NCBI GenBank assembly: GCA_034435995.1
Contig: DAOTWC010000081.1
Coordinates: 12,795-76,794 of the forward strand
DNA length: 64,000 bases
From: Anaerolineae bacterium
GTDB taxonomy: Bacteria > Chloroflexota > Anaerolineae > Aggregatilineales > Phototrophicaceae
Reading direction: 5' to 3'
Under the pieces are notes generated by a model that saw nothing but the letters and a program-made list of their open reading frames with translations, did no database searches and was not told the origin of the DNA. The translations under genes and the position numbers were made by a program. Positions 22,311 through 30,399 of this stretch are shown piece after piece. Within the stretch, counting starts at the first letter, position 1, and every line of letters starts with the position of its first letter.

Positions 22311-23446
22311 AGCAGGCGCTCCAGCGTGCGCGTGAACTGCAGCGCGCTGGCCTGCGCGGAGAAGCGCTCCAGGACGCGCGCCCGGCCCGCCGCGCCCAGG
22401 CGCGCGCGCAGCGCCGGATCGCGCAGCAGGGTGATAACCCGTCCGGCCAGCGCGCCGGGGTCGTCCGGCGGAACAAGACAGCCGGTTACGCCATCAACGA
22501 CGGTTTCCGCCGGGCCGCCGCGGTTGGTGCTGACGACGGGCCGCGCGCAGGCCATCGCCTCAACGACGGCCATGCCGAAGCCCTCGAAGCGCGAGGCGCA
22601 CACCACGACATCGGCGGCGGCCAGCACGCGCTCGACGTCAGGGCGGAAGCCGAGGTATTTCAGCCGCCGCTGGAGCAGGCTGTCGGCCTGCGCCGCCGCC
22701 AGCACCCGCTGCTTGTAGGCGCTGTCCGCGCCGGTCTGGATGTTCTCGCCGGCGACGATAAAGCGCGCCTCCGGGATTTGCAGCGCCACCTGGCGCGCCA
22801 TCGCCTGAAACGTGTCGTGGCCCTTCACGTCCTGGAAGCGGGCCACCAGCGCCACCACTGGCGCGTCGGCGGGGATGCCTGCCTCAAAGCGGACGCGCAG
22901 GCCGTCCACGCCGGGGTGAAAGCGTTCGGTGTCCACACCGGGGTAGAGCACTTCGACGCGCTCCGGCGGCATGAACGGCGGGCTGCCCAGGAAGCCGTCC
23001 TTGATGGCCTGCGAGTGGGCGAAGGCGGCGGCGCTGCGGCGGAAGAACGCGCGCTGCCAAGGCCGCGGCCGGAACCACCAGCCCATGCACGTCCACAGCG
23101 CGGGCACGCCGGCGCGCGCGGCGGCGGGCTGGGCGAACGGCAGCGCGTGGTATTCGCTGTGCACAGCGCGGATGTCGTGGGCGCGGATCAAGCGCTCGAT
23201 GCGGCGGACAACGGGCAGGCGCGCCCACAGCGCCGGGACGAAATACACACTGGCAGCGCGCCAGGGAAACACGTGGGCCGGCCAGCCGTGCGACTGCCAG
23301 CGCGCGGCAAGCTGGCCGGGGCGCGGCGTGAGCAGGTGCAGCCGCCAGCGGGCCGGATCAAGCTGCTCGGCCAGGTTGAGCAGAGCCGTTTCGCCGCCGC
23401 CCAGGTCGGCATAGCTGGTGATGAACAGGATGCTGCGCGGACTCAT
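22307..23446 (-). CDS. Glycosyltransferase, GT4/GT-B family
   Basis: I trimmed the 484-aa ORF to the internal ATG at 23446 (MSPRSILFITSYADLGGGETALLNL). That ATG forms an ATGA overlap with the stop of the upstream PFK-like gene. The discarded N-terminal 105 aa are Arg/Ala-rich and overlap that gene. C-terminal motif: VVVCASRFEGFGMAVVEAMACARPVVSTNRGG. Confidence 0.8.
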   Translation of the reverse strand: MSPRSILFITSYADLGGGETALLNLAEQLDPARWRLHLLTPRPGQLAARWQSHGWPAHVFPWRAASVYFVPALWARLPVVRRIERLIRAHDIRAVHSEYHALPFAQPAAARAGVPALWTCMGWWFRPRPWQRAFFRRSAAAFAHSQAIKDGFLGSPPFMPPERVEVLYPGVDTERFHPGVDGLRVRFEAGIPADAPVVALVARFQDVKGHDTFQAMARQVALQIPEARFIVAGENIQTGADSAYKQRVLAAAQADSLLQRRLKYLGFRPDVERVLAAADVVVCASRFEGFGMAVVEAMACARPVVSTNRGGPAETVVDGVTGCLVPPDDPGALAGRVITLLRDPALRARLGAAGRARVLERFSAQASALQFTRTLERLL

Positions 23447-24660
23447 CACAGCTGCAGCCGCCGCGCGACCAGCGGCCCGCGCAGGCGCGCCAGCGGCGGC
23501 AGCGGCCCGCCGATCAGCGGCAGGGCGTAATCCGCAAAGGCCGGCGTGACCATGTTCCCGGCGGCGTTCATGTATTCGCGCGGCAGCAGCTTCTCGCGCC
23601 CGGCGCAGGCGTCCAGCGGCTGCGCGCCGGCGACGCAGCGGTAGGGCGCGGCGGACACGCGCTCCAGCGTGACCATGAAGCCGCTCGCGCCTGCCGCCAG
23701 CCGTTCGACGGCGGCGGCGCCCGCCAGCTCCGCCTCTGCGCGATCGGTTTCGGAGACGCACGCCGAGAACGACCGCCCAACCAGCCCCGGCCGCAGCGCC
23801 CGCGCCTGCCAGCCGAAGCGCTCGCGCGCCAGCGCCGCCAGGTGCGACGACGCCCCCGCGCCGATCGAGTGTAAGGCACGGCCCATCACGTCGCGCGCTT
23901 CAACCTGGGCCTGCCCGATGAACGCGCCGGCGGCGTCGCGGATGCCTTCCCCCACCACGACGAACACGTACCCCAGCCGGGCGTGCACCCGCGCCGCGTC
24001 GTCCAGAAACTGCGCCTCGTCGAATGGAATCTCCGGCACGTAGACCAGGTGCGGCGCGTCGTCATCCGACTCCTTGCCCAGCGCCGCAGCCGCCGCCAGC
24101 CAGCCGGCGTTGCGCCCCAACGCCTCCAGGATGAGCATATCGTCGAATGTGGCCATTGCCTCCAGGTCACGGCCGGTGTCGCGGGCGGCCAGCGCCAGGA
24201 AGCGCGCCGCGCTGCCGTAGCCAGGCGCGTGATCCGTGCCCCACAGGTCGTTGTCAATTGTCTTGGGCACGCCGGCTGCGCGCAGCGGCCAGCCGGCTGC
24301 CTGGGCCGCCGCGCTGATGCGGGCGCACACCGTCATCGAGCCGTTGCCGCCGATGTAGACGAACGCCCCTACGTCGTGGGCGCGCAGTGTGTCTACGACG
24401 CGCGCGTACTCGTCGTCTGCCAGCCGGCGGCGGCTCGAACCGAGCGCCGCCCCCGGCGTGCGCGCCAGCAGCGCGAGGTTCTCCGGCGGCTCGGCGCTGA
24501 GGTCGCGCAGCGTCTCGCTGAGCGCGCCCTCCAAGCCGTGCGCCAGGCCGTACACGCGCGCGAACCCGGCGCGCTGCGCCGCGCGGATCACGCCGGCCAG
24601 GCTGGCGTTGACCACTGCGGACGGCCCGCCGGACTGCGCTACTGCCAGCGCGCCAGTCAT
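23446..24660 (-). CDS. Phosphofructokinase-family (PfkA / PPi-PFK-like) sugar-phosphate kinase
   Basis: PFK-family motifs SGGPSAVVN, IGGNGS, PKTIDNDL and LEALGRNAGW. Start chosen at ATG 24660 (MTGALAVAQSGG). The ORF-track start at 24762 would add a 34-aa basic extension and cannot be excluded. Confidence 0.75.
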   Translation of the reverse strand: MTGALAVAQSGGPSAVVNASLAGVIRAAQRAGFARVYGLAHGLEGALSETLRDLSAEPPENLALLARTPGAALGSSRRRLADDEYARVVDTLRAHDVGAFVYIGGNGSMTVCARISAAAQAAGWPLRAAGVPKTIDNDLWGTDHAPGYGSAARFLALAARDTGRDLEAMATFDDMLILEALGRNAGWLAAAAALGKESDDDAPHLVYVPEIPFDEAQFLDDAARVHARLGYVFVVVGEGIRDAAGAFIGQAQVEARDVMGRALHSIGAGASSHLAALARERFGWQARALRPGLVGRSFSACVSETDRAEAELAGAAAVERLAAGASGFMVTLERVSAAPYRCVAGAQPLDACAGREKLLPREYMNAAGNMVTPAFADYALPLIGGPLPPLARLRGPLVARRLQL

Positions 24661-24818
24661 GTGGTTCGCGGCGTTGGCCGGCCGCCCTGCGCTGCGCTCA
24701 TCGCTGACGCCCTTTCGTTCTGCGCCCGCCCCGCGCCTGGCACGCTGGGGATAAACGGGCATGCATTCAGGGGATGTTTCTCTCTTTAAGTATATAAGGT
24801 AGCAGTCTTAGTAGGGGC

Positions 24819-25198
24819 TGTGCAAATGTCGAAAAGTCGGTAACGCGGGTTGTAATGCGGGATATTTATCCCAGGTTAGCGGCGGCTGGCGCGCCATAAC
24901 CCAGGTTTATCACCGGCAGCCGCACCGCTGTGGGATTGTGTGGGAAAAAAGTTATGCACAGGCCGTGTTGATAACTGGCGGGCGTTTTGCACAGCTTCGA
25001 CAGGCCTCCATGCCGAGGTGTGCAAAAGGGGCTGTCTGCGCTGTATTTGGGTTAAGTTATGAACAGTTTTCGACAGGCTGCGCACAGGTTTTGCACAGGC
25101 TGTCTACAGGTGTTTTGGGATAACCGGCTGGAATCGCTGCGATACTGGGGATATATCGCAGAAAATTTGTTCTTTATCCCAAGGTCGCTTTGGGATAA
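24819..25198. promoter_or_regulatory. Cluster of DnaA-box-like 9-mers in an AT-richer non-coding region (candidate oriC or DnaA-binding regulatory region)
   Basis: Scored against TTATCCACA. One mismatch: TTATGCACA 24952-24960 (+) and TTATCAACA 24966-24974 (-). Two mismatches: TTTCCCACA 24939-24947 (-); TTTTGCACA 24985-24993 (+), 25019-25027 (-) and 25089-25097 (+); TTATGAACA 25057-25065 (+); TTATCCCAA 25115-25123 (-), 25174-25182 (+) and 25190-25198 (-). An AT-rich stretch lies at 24781-24815. The region sits between divergently transcribed gene blocks. Confidence 0.4.
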
Positions 25199-25310
25199 CG
25201 GCGCGCGAGGGCTGCCATTCAAAATCGCAGTATGCGCTGCGAGTTGCCAGCGGCGCGCGCGGGGGATATGGTAGAAGCAGCAGATACAGCCAGCGGGAGA
25301 GGGGGCGAAC

Positions 25311-26294
25311 ATGTTCACCACAGAAGACGAACGGGTGCGCGCGGCGGCCTTCGCTATCACGGCGCGCTTCGAGGGCGGCGCTTACGACGCCTACCAGAAC
25401 CACGACCGGGGCATCGTCAGCTACGGGCGCTTCCAGTTCACGCTGGCGGCGGGCACGCTGGGCACGGTCGTCACGCGCTACTTGCAGCGGTCGCAGTCGG
25501 CGGCGGCAGAGCGGCTGCGCCCGTATCAGGCGCGCATCCTTAACCGCGACCCGACGCTGCGCGGCGACGGCGAGCTGCGGGCGGCGCTGGTGGCAGCCGC
25601 GCGCGAGCCGGCTATGCAGCAGGTGCAGGACGAGCTGGCGACCGAGGCCTACTGGGATCGCACACACCAGATCGCCATCGCGCCACGCGGCATCCGCCTG
25701 CCGCTGAGCCGGGCGCTGCTGTTCGACGTGAGCATCAACTTCGGCGTGGGCGATGGCTTCCTGCGCATGGCCGAGCGCGACTTCGGCGTGGCGCAGCGCT
25801 CGCGGCTGGGCGACAACGGCCTCAGCGAGGAGCAGCTCATCCGCCGCGTGACCGAGCTGCGCAAACGCTCGCACGACCGCCAGGCCGAGCGCGACCGGCT
25901 GCCCGGCCTAAGTGTGCGCGGCGATTTCTGGGTGGCGCGCGTGGCGGCCGGCGACTGGCAGCTTCAGGGCGACGCCAACGGCAATGTCAACGTCAACGGC
26001 GCGCTGGTGCAGGTGCGCAATCCGCTCAGCGCTGGCGCAGCGCCGCCCCCGCCCGGCCCGCTGCGCATCACGCCGGCGGGCGGCCCGGTCAACCTGCGCG
26101 ACCAGCCCACCACTGTCGGCAGCGCTGTGCGCGCCCTCGTGCGCCCCGGCGACGTGCTGACGGTGATCGAGGACCCCGATGCGGCGCGGCCGAAGATCGG
26201 CAGCACGGCCAGCCAGCAGTGGGTAGCCGTGCGCACCGCCGACGGCGTCACCGGCTTCACCGCTGCCTGGCTCTACCGGGTGCACGAAGACTGA
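25311..26294 (+). CDS. Lysozyme-like / GH46 (chitosanase)-superfamily domain protein with C-terminal SH3b domain, no signal peptide
   Basis: GGGAGAGGGGG lies upstream of the ATG. The N-terminal domain has the pattern FEGG..DAYQN.D.GIVSYGRFQFTLAAGTLG, which resembles GH46-like lytic domains. The C-terminal ~70 aa match the SH3b pattern (VNLRDQPTTVGSAVRALVRPGDVLTVIE...WVAVRTADGVTGFTAAWL). Confidence 0.65.
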   Translation: MFTTEDERVRAAAFAITARFEGGAYDAYQNHDRGIVSYGRFQFTLAAGTLGTVVTRYLQRSQSAAAERLRPYQARILNRDPTLRGDGELRAALVAAAREPAMQQVQDELATEAYWDRTHQIAIAPRGIRLPLSRALLFDVSINFGVGDGFLRMAERDFGVAQRSRLGDNGLSEEQLIRRVTELRKRSHDRQAERDRLPGLSVRGDFWVARVAAGDWQLQGDANGNVNVNGALVQVRNPLSAGAAPPPPGPLRITPAGGPVNLRDQPTTVGSAVRALVRPGDVLTVIEDPDAARPKIGSTASQQWVAVRTADGVTGFTAAWLYRVHED

Positions 26295-26523
26295 TTAACG
26301 GCCGCGCATTTCGAATCTAACGCCGCCGGCGGATCTGTAAGCATCTTGCAAGGTAAGCCAGCCTAGAATTCTTACAAATTACGCAATTTCTCAATGCAGC
26401 GCTGCGGGCACTTGGCTGCTTCCGGGCGCTTGCCGCGTGATGCATATTGTCTCAACAGCGCAGCCAATCATGTCACGAACCCCACCACCACGGCAGGTGC
26501 TGGGGACAGCGGGGAGAACAAAG

Positions 26524-29500
26524 ATGGTCGGGGACAGATTAAAAGGCTTTCTTGTCGTCCTGGTGCTTCTAGCGCTGCTGGCCCCGCTGGGCCTGGGCGG
26601 CCTAACGGCACAAGCCCAGGTATTCGCGCCCACGCCGATCCTGGTAGTAGTCAACGACAGCGCGCCCTACCAGTTTGGCCGCTACCTGGGGGAAATTCTC
26701 ACGGCTGAGGGCATTACCAGCTTTGTGACGGTTCAGATCGGCGCGCTGACCGCGGCCGATCTAACGAACCGCGACCTGGTTATCGTGGCCGAGACGCCGC
26801 TGACGCCTGGCCAGGCTGCGCTCCTCACAGACTATTACAACGCCGGCGGGCGGCTGCTGGCGATGCGGCCCGACGCGCAGATCGCCGGGCTGTTCGGCCT
26901 GGGCGCTGCCGTGGGGACGCAGGAGCGCGCCTACCTGCGCATCCTTAACGGCGCAGTTGTCAACGGTGAAGCGCCCGGCCAGGGCATCACTGGCCAGACG
27001 ATTCAGTATCACGGCACGGCCACGCTGCACAACACCCTGGGCGGCGCTGTCACTGTTGCCGAGCTGTACAGCAGCGCCACCGCGCCCACCGGCTTCCCAG
27101 CAGTGGTGGCCACCAGCGATGGCCGCGCCGCCGCCTTCACCTACGATCTAGCGCGCAGCGTTGTGCTGATGCGCCAAGGCAACCCAGCCAACGCCAACGT
27201 GGACGTTGACGGCGACGGCGTCTTCCGCACGCGCGACCTGTATCTGAGCGCCGACGGCAACCACTGGGTGGACCGCACCCGCCTGCCCATCGTGCAGGCT
27301 GACGAGCAGCAGCGCCTGTTCGCGCGGCTGGTGCGCCAGGCCGTCGAGCAGGTGCGCCCGCTGCCGCGCCTGTGGTATTTCCCCGGCACAGCCCGCACCC
27401 TGCTTATCGCCACCAGCGACTCGCACGCCAACCCGGCGAGCTACCACGTCGAGCTGCAGAACGCGGTAGCTGATTACGGCGGCACGCTCACAACCTATCT
27501 CTCGATTGGCGCGCCGGACAACGCAACGATTCAAAGCTGGCGGGCGCAGGGGCACGAGTTCGGCATGCACCCGTATGTCTACCGCGCTGATCCGTTCCCG
27601 CCGTTCAACGTAGAAAACATTGTAGAGGGGTACTACGTCGCCAACTACTGGTTCGAGAACACGTATACCAGCCCGAAATCGCGCACGGTGCGCGCGCACG
27701 ATATCGGCTGGCTGGGCTGGACCGACGCCGCTGAGCTGGGGCTGCAGTACAACATCAACCTCAACCTAGACCTGTTCACTGTTGGCCGCTGGCTGCAGCT
27801 CCCTGATGGGAGCTGGCCGCACGGCTACATGAACGGCAGCGGCCAGCCGATGCGCATGGTGCGCGCCGACGGCGTGATTCTGAATTATTACCAGCAGGCG
27901 ATGCCGCTGATTGACATCCAGCTTCTGTGCCAGCTTGCATACGAGGGCCTCAACAACACGACTGCCATGGCCGTCTCGCGCGAGCTGATTGACAACAGCC
28001 AGGCCGGCGGCTATTCCGCCATTGGGGCGTTCTTCCAGGTGGACTGTGTTCAATATGGCACCACGCCCTGGGTGCGCGACACGCTGGCCTACGCCCAGAG
28101 CGTGGGCGCGCCGATCTGGAACGCCGACCGCTTCCTGGCGTTCACCGAGACGCGCTACGACAGCGAATACACCGACATCGTCTGGAACGGGGCGACCAGC
28201 ACGCTCACGTTCAACTTGATCGCGCCCGCCAGCGGTTTCGACCTGAGCACGATCATACCAGCCAGCTACAACGGCAGCGGTTTGTCGTCGGTGCTGGTGG
28301 ACGGCAGTCCTGTGGCGTTCAGCGTGCAGCCGATCAAGGGCCGGAACGAGGCTTTTGTTACCGTTCAGGCAGGCAGCCGCAGCTTTGTGGCCGTTTACGA
28401 CGGCCCGGTGAGCACACCGACGCCAACCTGGACGCCGTCGGCCACGCCCACCAACACCCCAACCCCCACCCCGACAGCGACAGAAGGCCCGTCGCCAACG
28501 CCGACTGACACGCCGACCAACACCCCGACTCCTTCGCCAACGCCGGCGCCGCTGCCTGGGACGTACACACAGACGCTGCAGGTGAACGCGGGCAGCGACG
28601 ACGTCAACGAAGACGGCGCTGACCTGGAGGTGAACAACGCCACGATCTGGGTGGGCAGCGGCGAGAGCGCCAGCGCCAGCTACCTGGGGCTGCGGTTTAA
28701 CAACGTGCCAGCCCCGGCCGGCGCGACGATTGACAGCGCCTACCTGCAGTTCTACTCGCCCACCGGCGGCTGGACGGTCGTTGCCGCGGAGATCGCGGCG
28801 GAAGCCGTTGACAGCAGCGTCACGTTCACGCTGGCCAACCGGCCGTCGCAGCGGCCGCTGACCGCCGCGCGCGTGCAGCACAACTCGAACGCGCAGTGGC
28901 TGGCGGGCAATTGGTACAACTTCGACGAAATGCGCACCGTGGTGCAGGAAGTCGTTGACCGGCCCGGCTGGCAGGTTGGCAACAGCCTGTCCATCATCCT
29001 GCGCGGCACAGCCGGCGCGTGGGCGCGCAAGTTCGCGGCGGCCTTCGAGAGCAGCCCGGTTAACGCGGCGCGGCTGGTGATCACCTACACTATCCCCGGC
29101 CCGACGGCCACGCCAACCGACCTGCCGACCAATACCCCGACTCCAACGCCAACGCTGACGCCGACCGACGGCCCATCGCCGACGTCAACCGACACGCCAA
29201 GCGTTCCGACCAACACGCCCACGCCGACGCCCACGCCGACGCCGGAGTCGCTGACGACGCTGTTCGGGCACAACGGGCGGTTCTTCCACGGGAACATGTT
29301 CAACGTGACGGTGACGAACCCGCTGGAGATCACCAGCTTCGACGTGAACATTGGGGCGGGGAACACGACGGTGAGCGTGTACTACCGGATTGGCGGCTAC
29401 GCGGGGGTGGAGGCGAACCCGGCGGCGTGGACGCTGATGGGGTCGGCGGCGGTGGTGGGCGCTGGCCCGAACAACCGGACGGCTTTAGCAGTGAGCAGCC

Positions 29501-30399
29501 CGGTGCTGCAGCCGGGGACGTACGGGTTCTACGTGACGGTGGACCCGGCGGGGCCGGTGGACATGTACTACACGTCGGGGAGCGGGACGTTTGCCAACGC
29601 CGACCTGGCGATCACGACGGGGATCGGCGTGGGCGGGCTGTTCGGCGACCCGGCGGCGTGCGCGGCGCGGAACTTCAGCAACAACCCGTGCATCTTCCTG
29701 GATCGGACGTGGAACGGGACGATCTACTACCGGACGATCGCGCCGACGGCGACGCCGACGGCCACAGCCACTGCTACGCCGACTGATACACCAACAAACA
29801 CGCCGACGCCGACGGCCACGGCCACTGACGTCCCAACCAACACACCGATCCCGACCGAGACGCCGACTGATACGCCAACAAACACGCCAACGCCGACAGC
29901 CACCGACATTCCGACCGAGACGCCGACGGCCACAGCCACCGCTACGCCGACTGATACACCAACAAACACGCCGACGCCGACGGCCACGGCCACCGACGTC
30001 CCGACCAACACACCGATCCCGACCGAGACGCCGACGGCCACAGCCACCGCTACGCCGACTAATACGCCAACAAACACGCCGACGCCGACACCAACGAACA
30101 CGCCGGCCCCCAACAGAGCGCCCTATGTGATCCCGAATCAAACGACAGTGACGGCGGTCAACGGCCAGATGGTCACTAACACCGGCCAGGTGATTGACCT
30201 TGACGGCGACTTTGTGACGCTGACGGCCTCGGTGGGCACAGTCGTTAACAACGGCAACGGCACTTGGACGTGGACGTTCACGCCGGCCAACGGCCCGGCT
30301 GACAGCCAGACGGTGATCATCACCGGCAGCGACGGGCGCGGCGGCATCGGCCAGGGGCTGTTCTCGCTGACCGTCGTCTGGCCGACGCCGACGCCGTAA
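26524..30399 (+). CDS. Large secreted multidomain protein with Thr/Pro-rich linkers and C-terminal cadherin/Ig-like domain
   Basis: ATG at 26524 has GGGGAG 8 nt upstream, and the ORF-track start at 26437 is less likely. Signal/anchor sequence is [28 protein letters not shown]. Globular segments are separated by PTPT/TPTN low-complexity linkers at about nt 28400-28560, 29095-29250 and 29740-30110. The terminal ~90 aa look like a cadherin-like beta domain ([18 protein letters not shown]...). Confidence 0.8.
29761..30090 (+). repeat. Near-identical 105-nt direct repeats inside the linker-coding region
   Basis: Copy 1 (29761-29865) and copy 2 (29929-30033) differ at about 3 positions. A partial third copy starts at 30037. 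A 63-nt related segment separates copies 1 and 2. The repeats encode [36 protein letters not shown]. Confidence 0.85.

Follow-up and report, generated by a model that had tools for sequence, protein, structure and literature searches.

What does a 548-bp gap (24763–25310) crowded with DnaA-box-like 9-mers do between a phosphofructokinase gene on the minus strand and a GH46/SH3 gene on the plus strand? An earlier note on this DNA had proposed a replication origin uncoupled from dnaA, and had listed two other possibilities: a locus that titrates DnaA or has a regulatory role, or binding sites of some unrelated regulator. The stretch that we studied, here called the window, is 64,000 nucleotides long (C81:12795-76794) and belongs to an Anaerolineae assembly of 4.01 Mb in 181 contigs with 64% GC (genome G000). 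We compared it with genomes of its own family (f1) and of other families of the same order (f2, f4, f6, f7 and f8).

We consider it very probable that the gap is the DnaA-dependent chromosomal oriC of this genome, a function to which its anatomy, its conservation and its coarse position on the GC skew all point. The dnaA-uncoupled origin is favored over the other readings by an unwinding core, by the single copy of the element, by its place next to dnaA in sister family f2, and by the coarse skew. It would be an oriC of the known DnaA-box/DnaA-trio type; what is new is its delineation for a large uncultured Anaerolineae family, its site away from dnaA, a box consensus peculiar to the lineage, and a further motif. 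In our search of the literature, no work on the origins or trios of Chloroflexota or Anaerolineae came up. The features discussed below are collected in Table 1.

Table 1. Features of the proposed origin and its flanks, in window coordinates
Feature	Position	Strand	Remark
Phosphofructokinase gene, left flank, outside the origin	23446–24762	-	Pfam PF00365, E = 6.7e-49
Proposed oriC, whole (from left to right: core, then DnaA-box array)	24777–25198	+	Densest box segment; orthologous single-copy element in the family
AT-rich stretch TTTCTCTCTTTAAGTATATAAGG, 23 bp, 26% GC, candidate DNA-unwinding element	24777–24799	+	
Putative DnaA-trios TAG CAG TCT TAG TAG (5'-TAG-3' = 3'-GAT-5')	24800–24814	+	25-genome alignment; definition in PMC8287927
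GC cluster GGGC between trios and boxes	24815–24818	+	GGGC/GGCC conserved in the family
Trio-proximal, weaker DnaA box ATTTGCACA (plus strand TGTGCAAAT), 3 mismatches	24819–24827	-	One base shared with the next box
Trio-distal DnaA box TTTTCGACA (plus strand TGTCGAAAA), 2 mismatches to TTATCCACA, proposed anchor box	24827–24835	-	
Near-palindrome GCGGGATATTTATCCCAGG, second motif class TGGGAT-N-ATCCCA	24858–24876		TGGGATnnnTnTCCCAA kept here in most family members
Convergent boxes, TTATGCACA at 24952–24960 (+) and TGTTGATAA at 24966–24974 (TTATCAACA on the minus strand), 5 bp apart	24952–24974		GTTATGCACAG...CTGTCGATAAC conserved across genera
Boxes TTTTGCACA at 24985 (+) and TTTTGCACA at 25019 (-)	24985–25027		
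Head-to-tail array TTATGAACA, TTTTCGACA, TTTTGCACA (25089) and weaker CTGTCTACA	25057–25108	+	
Three TTATCCCAA motifs: 25115–25123 (-) and the inverted pair 25174–25182 (+) / 25190–25198 (-), arms 7 bp apart	25115–25198		
GH46-like/SH3 protein gene, right flank, outside the origin	25311–26294	+	

Box cluster and candidate unwinding core

The gap is AT-richer than its surroundings, as the earlier note had observed (54% GC versus 64% genome-wide), and it is also rich in boxes: where at least ten 9-mers within two mismatches of TTATCCACA had been claimed, we count 13, with no perfect copy among the sites of the gap. The chance level, taken from 5000 dinucleotide shuffles of the gap itself, is 1.16 ± 1.05 such 9-mers, and none of the 5000 shuffles reached 13. 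Across the assembly, the gap is the densest 550-bp segment, with 14 sites versus 10 for the runner-up and a genome mean of 0.88 per 550 bp. When the lineage consensus TTWTNNACA is counted, 8 of the 351 genome-wide sites fall in the gap, and every other segment contains at most three. The second-densest segment (C69:20950, 10 loose matches) is attributable to chance, as it contains no TTWTNNACA cluster, and a three-box site on contig C20 lies inside a mutL-like coding region. Genome-wide, we found no other locus in G000 with four or more TTWTNNACA boxes, or with a complete core in which tandem boxes, a GC cluster and trios are combined. No RNA family was found in the gap (Rfam). Directly to the right of the origin region, positions 26437–30399 contain a 1320-aa ORF with no Pfam match, in a lower-GC stretch (about 60–66%).

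The left end of the gap has the layout of a known unwinding module. In the basal unwinding system of the B. subtilis oriC, tandem DnaA boxes are followed by a short GC-rich gap, then by 3'-GAT-5' DnaA-trios and an AT-rich region. The system has been defined by a box with at most two mismatches and an optional second with at most four, a spacer of at most 16 bp (13 bp being the commonest) with a GC-rich gap of roughly 4 bp, and a run of three or more trios whose middle base is adenine, 3'-GAT-5' being preferred (Pelliciari 2021, PMC8287927). Both core boxes of the window lie in tandem on the minus strand and fall within the limits of two and four mismatches, and the spacer from the better box to the first trio is 12 bp (8 plus GGGC), compared to 13 bp in most relatives. 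Read outward from the boxes, the trios run TAG TAG TCT CAG TAG: two consecutive trios and then a TCT break, with a central A in four of the five. The same-genus genome G001, in which the third trio is CAT, and about half of 25 aligned relatives reach at least three consecutive NAN trios, whereas G000 does not.

Conservation in that 25-genome alignment follows a 3-nt period, TAG-nnG-nnn-TAG-TAG: counted from the boxes, TAG never varies in trios 1, 2 and 5, trio 4 keeps only its final G, and trio 3 is unconstrained. This pattern, which would be hard to explain otherwise, suggests that the trios are functional, and by analogy it is the plus strand that would be bound there as single-stranded DNA. 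The AT-rich stretch that had been proposed as an unwinding element can be placed directly beside them. Among the 25 relatives its AT-richness is kept but its sequence is not, and it always lies immediately 5' of the trios, the position occupied by the T/A run in the Bacillaceae origin.

To the right of this core, about ten further boxes are spread over 370 bp. The interval 24952–25198 contains seven more TTWTNNACA boxes, several of them 10–11 bp apart, plus three TTATCCCAA motifs; the facing pair of boxes, the three copies each of TTTTGCACA and TTATCCCAA, and the weaker box copies at 24819 and 24866 that had been listed for this gap are all found there or in the part to its left (Table 1). Within the head-to-tail array, successive boxes begin 10, 22 and 11 bp from one another, that is, about one helical turn within each adjacent pair, and the same array recurs in relatives: in G044, for example, it consists of four GTTTTGAACAG copies with an 11-bp period. 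The second motif class is also concentrated here. TWATCCCA has 107 copies genome-wide, and only two segments contain three or more of them: the gap (four) and the region upstream of dnaA (three). Averaged over 25 f1 origins, the TTATCCCAA-type motif occurs about three times per origin, compared to zero to two times elsewhere, and it is absent from G015, an f1 genome of the N type described below.

By analogy with the basal unwinding system of B. subtilis, we infer a mechanism in which DnaA would first bind the tandem boxes (24819–24835). From there, ATP-DnaA would oligomerize across the GGGC cluster onto the plus-strand TAG trios, and the oligomer on the trios would open the AT-rich stretch for helicase loading. 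The roughly ten boxes on the right, some of them about one helical turn apart, may serve to build and stabilize the DnaA oligomer.

A dense cluster of boxes away from dnaA might instead mark a DnaA-titration or -reactivation locus of the datA or DARS kind that does not fire, and the absence of a fine-scale skew step at the element, described below, would fit that as well. We think this very unlikely: the gap has the full trio/GC-cluster/AT-rich core in the Bacillus arrangement, the genome has no comparable cluster or core elsewhere that could be the real origin, the element directly follows dnaA in sister family f2, and in two genomes it lies at the coarse zero-crossing of the skew. The E. coli datA and DARS loci resemble the window's element in being DnaA-box clusters away from dnaA, but they have no trio or DUE core, lie off the skew switch and are lineage-restricted, whereas the element described here includes an unwinding core and is the only strong cluster of its genome.

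Conservation of the element and its distance from dnaA

Conservation of the motif instances in the orthologous regions of relatives had been named as a check on the origin reading, and they proved to be conserved. DNA identity of the gap is 78% to G001 and 67% to G018, which belongs to another genus, and in alignments of 10 and of 25 genomes the boxes and trios are kept and the spacers are free to change. A covariance model of the core (125 nt), built on sequence alone, matched 170 of 201 family genomes, with exactly one match in 168 of them, and covered 41 of 42 genera. In the other families of the order it matched 35 of 59 genomes, all but one in single copy, and there the AT-rich/trio/GC/box part aligned. 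The core model replaced a search of the family with a 24-nt IUPAC pattern, the counts from which were discarded (a reversed control matched equally often); pattern matches in G043, G117:C3 and G080 proved to be chance once aligned.

The genes on either side vary with the genus. The left neighbor is a GAF histidine kinase or phosphofructokinase gene, and the right neighbor encodes PEMT, a radical SAM protein, YceI or GH46 or, in G044, is the 3' end of dnaN. In that last case (G044:C1:1468928) it is the box side of the origin that abuts the dnaN 3' end; this place belongs to dnaA in f2 and in Bacillus, and the dnaA of G044 is 56 kb off. Another variable feature is a short conserved motif, AGTGTAnCAC, that most family members carry about 100–150 bp upstream of their trios, where the GAF histidine kinase gene is the left neighbor; it is missing in G000 (window 24650–24770) and in G001, where phosphofructokinase has taken the left place.

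These flanks bear on two further readings. Because the gap lies between divergently transcribed genes, and because the TTATCCCAA inverted repeats resemble sites for dimeric regulators, it could be a regulatory region of the flanking genes that is bound by an unrelated transcription factor, its likeness to DnaA boxes being coincidental. We judge this highly improbable, given that the element is kept while both neighbors change between genera, that it is present in single copy per genome, and that its boxes co-vary with a DNA-reading residue of DnaA (see below). The variable flanks themselves, together with the lower-GC stretch with a large repeat-rich secreted protein to the right, would be in keeping with an origin that belongs to a mobile element, such as an integrated plasmid or phage. 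This is the alternative to which we give the least credence of all, as no Rep, integrase or partition gene adjoins the element, which nearly all genomes of the family have once, which is also present in sister families, and which adjoins dnaA in f2.

An origin of the chromosome, our preferred reading, raises the matter of dnaA itself. As had been noted, neither dnaA nor dnaN is in the window: in G000 they lie at C63:2269-3654 and C79:5892-7019, on other contigs, and they are not neighbors of each other either. In sister family f2, the element lies 0.4–0.7 kb downstream of dnaA in all seven of seven genomes, in the Bacillus orientation. In the window's own family, the two are separated by 56 kb to about 0.95 Mb: 56 kb in G044, 945 kb in G046, about 0.85 Mb in G015, about 0.65 Mb or more in G136, and at least 390 kb in G001, where they are on different contigs. 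The simplest reading is that an ancestral dnaA–oriC arrangement was broken up in f1 and that dnaA moved off.

A rival box cluster at dnaA or dnaN would speak against an origin in the gap, and no better one exists there in G000. The region upstream of dnaA (C63:1590-2250) nevertheless deserves attention as a candidate for the true origin, with the window's element as the secondary or accessory half of a split origin. It is AT-rich (51–58% GC) and contains four to five TTATCCCA motifs, conserved in four genera as TTATCCCAATGTTAAA and TTWTCCCAACCTTAAAAT, and C63:1772-2031 is the sole other TTATCCCAA cluster in the genome. The chance that replication starts there appears very slim. When the two intergenic regions were compared, the one upstream of dnaA showed neither a cluster of TTWTNNACA boxes nor an unwinding core (trios, GC cluster and boxes); the skew does not change sign at dnaA in either G046 or G015; and the distances given above are too great for a bipartite origin. 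The region is moreover promoter-like, with a conserved TATACT and a long leader. It reads as a promoter with regulatory sites rather than an origin, one that would keep only the TTATCCCAA-type motif. The small divergent gene upstream of dnaA appears, from its translation as read by eye, to be SpoVS-like.

GC skew around the element and around dnaA

GC skew, also suggested in the earlier note as a check, agreed with an origin at the element on a coarse scale, with a sign change there in the near-complete relatives G046 and G015, but near the origin it is too weak to pinpoint the site. On G046:C3 (6.25 Mb, sampled in 20-kb pieces), the skew is positive from 0.1 to 2.0 Mb and negative from 2.5 to 5.27 Mb, passing dnaA (4.37 Mb) unaltered (-0.032 and then -0.031); it fades to -0.002 just left of the element (5.313 Mb), and is about zero or weakly positive from there to the end of the contig. 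On G015:C1 (3.63 Mb), the values flanking dnaA (0.2 Mb) are +0.045 and +0.038; the skew then climbs to +0.107 at 1.0 Mb and flips to -0.096 at 1.5 Mb, which puts the terminus between 1.0 and 1.5 Mb. By 2.1–2.7 Mb it is about -0.01, the crossing from minus to plus falls at about 2.7–3.2 Mb, with the element at 2.974 Mb, and a value of +0.027 is reached at 3.58 Mb. Both genomes thus have, at coarse resolution, an origin-type sign change at the element to within about ±250 kb, roughly opposite the terminus, and dnaA is excluded as its location.

In contiguous 10-kb bins extending ±200 kb, no skew step is present at the element in G015, G046 or G001; because the skew is flat over that range, it can place the origin only to about ±250 kb. 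The skew of G001 as a whole is uninformative. On the window's own 84-kb contig, the skew is -0.008 to the left of the gap and +0.016 to the right, and the cumulative curve has its minimum 11 kb rightward of the gap; this is compatible with an origin in the gap, yet uninformative. Gene-strand bias was absent on this contig according to a crude GC3-based gene caller, and is likewise uninformative.

Two other aspects of the skew caught our attention. On both G015:C1 and G046:C3 its amplitude is graded: it stays at about zero for several hundred kb around the origin and reaches about ±0.1 toward the terminus. Rearrangements, if frequent close to the origin, are a possible cause, and would fit the variable flanks. 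Among the G000 contigs longer than 50 kb, 15 of 17 have a net positive GC skew, which is odd if contig orientation is arbitrary.

Box consensus, DnaA residue 433 and comparison with known origins

The boxes of this family depart from the canonical sequence in a particular way. In 222 TTWTNNACA boxes from 25 family origins, positions 5-6 are GA, CG, GC or CT and never CC (0/222), and position 10 is G in 183 of them. The DnaA protein departs as well: that of the clade reads GGR-S-HTT, where those of E. coli (1J1V), B. subtilis (8BTG) and M. tuberculosis (3PVP) read GGR-D-HTT (the DnaA of G000 is L001:1483-2904). The changed position is D433 in E. coli numbering: most of the family has S or A there, and several sister families have N (K in G236). 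This position is among the helix-5 residues 432–435 described as making base-specific contacts (PMC5043019), and on the contacts of D433 we found nothing useful in the literature beyond that source.

Across the order, residue and boxes vary together: where the residue is D (8 genomes, f6 and f7), positions 5-6 are CC in 49 of 62; where it is N (16 genomes, from f2, f4 and f8 plus G015 within f1), they are CA in 95 of 137 and CC in 9; where it is S or A (10 genomes, f1), CC is found in 0 of 88 and CA in 2, the A-type genomes favoring CT/CG; and in the one genome with K (G236) they are CG in 7 of 9, although the clades in this comparison are not independent, making the co-variation a lead rather than a proven code. 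Since box positions 5-6 co-vary with a residue of DnaA that contacts bases, they provide independent support for DnaA as the reader of the boxes.

We tentatively suggest, with somewhat less than even confidence, that DnaA and its boxes co-evolved in this order, D going with TTATCCACA, N mostly with TTATCAACA, and S or A never with CC, and that the second motif, TTATCCCAA, found in the oriC and the dnaA promoter of the S/A clade, may be an alternative site read by the altered DnaA, or else one for some other factor through which dnaA transcription is coupled to origin firing. If so, these genomes form a natural specificity series for a direct test of the DnaA recognition code at positions 5-6, and the co-variation offers a specific and testable way into the question of how DnaA recognizes its boxes. 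One f4 genome, G039, contains two full-length dnaA genes above the family cut-off (C35:55454-56797 and C41:518-1888), one S-type and the other N-type; contamination, strain mixing or a real duplication could account for the pair.

How does this element compare with origins already described? Lineage-specific boxes are known from Helicobacter and other Epsilonproteobacteria (TCATTCACN), from Mycobacterium and Streptomyces (TTGTCCACA) and from Thermotoga, which has a 12-mer (PMC5043019, PMC10316083). The window's element is like these in having a divergent consensus in an otherwise standard origin, with helix 5 of DnaA domain IV as the suspected cause. It differs in that the consensus here forms a graded series within one order, one that points to a single residue and two box positions.

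The unwinding core can be set beside that of Bacillus almost letter by letter. On the minus strand, the window reads TTTTCGACA-TTTGCACA-GCCC-CTACTA... followed by AT-rich sequence, and the dnaA–dnaN spacer of Bacillaceae, read directly from one genome, is TTATCAACA-TATCCACA-GCCC-CTACTACTATTACTACGA-T8A7: the elements, their order, their orientation and their spacing are alike, and the GCCC cluster is identical. The B. subtilis system, reportedly described by Richardson in 2016, is said to comprise DnaA-boxes 6/7, a GC cluster, the DnaA-trios and an AT-rich element. Such close agreement supports the unwinding module as ancestral in bacteria. The differences from B. subtilis lie around and within this core: the element of the window's family is not between dnaA and dnaN; its boxes are TTWTNNACA(G), and CC, the canonical pair, is never found at their positions 5-6; among its trios, only 1, 2 and 5 are fixed, and trio 3 of G000 has no central A; and TTATCCCAA adds a further class of motif.

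For a large uncultured Anaerolineae family in which "look next to dnaA" fails, a sequence-defined origin has practical uses, as its position helps with genome orientation, with coverage-based estimates of growth rate and with the finishing of MAGs. Origins uncoupled from dnaA are familiar in other bacteria: the E. coli oriC lies at gidA-mioC, the Caulobacter Cori by hemE, and cyanobacterial origins by dnaN. The element described here is like them in being a probable DnaA-dependent origin far from dnaA, and in that dnaA keeps regulatory sites of its own. The difference is that here the transition is visible within one order, which displays the stepwise separation of dnaA and oriC: the two are adjacent in f2, they are far apart among reshuffled neighbors in f1, and in one genus of the latter dnaN is found beside the origin.
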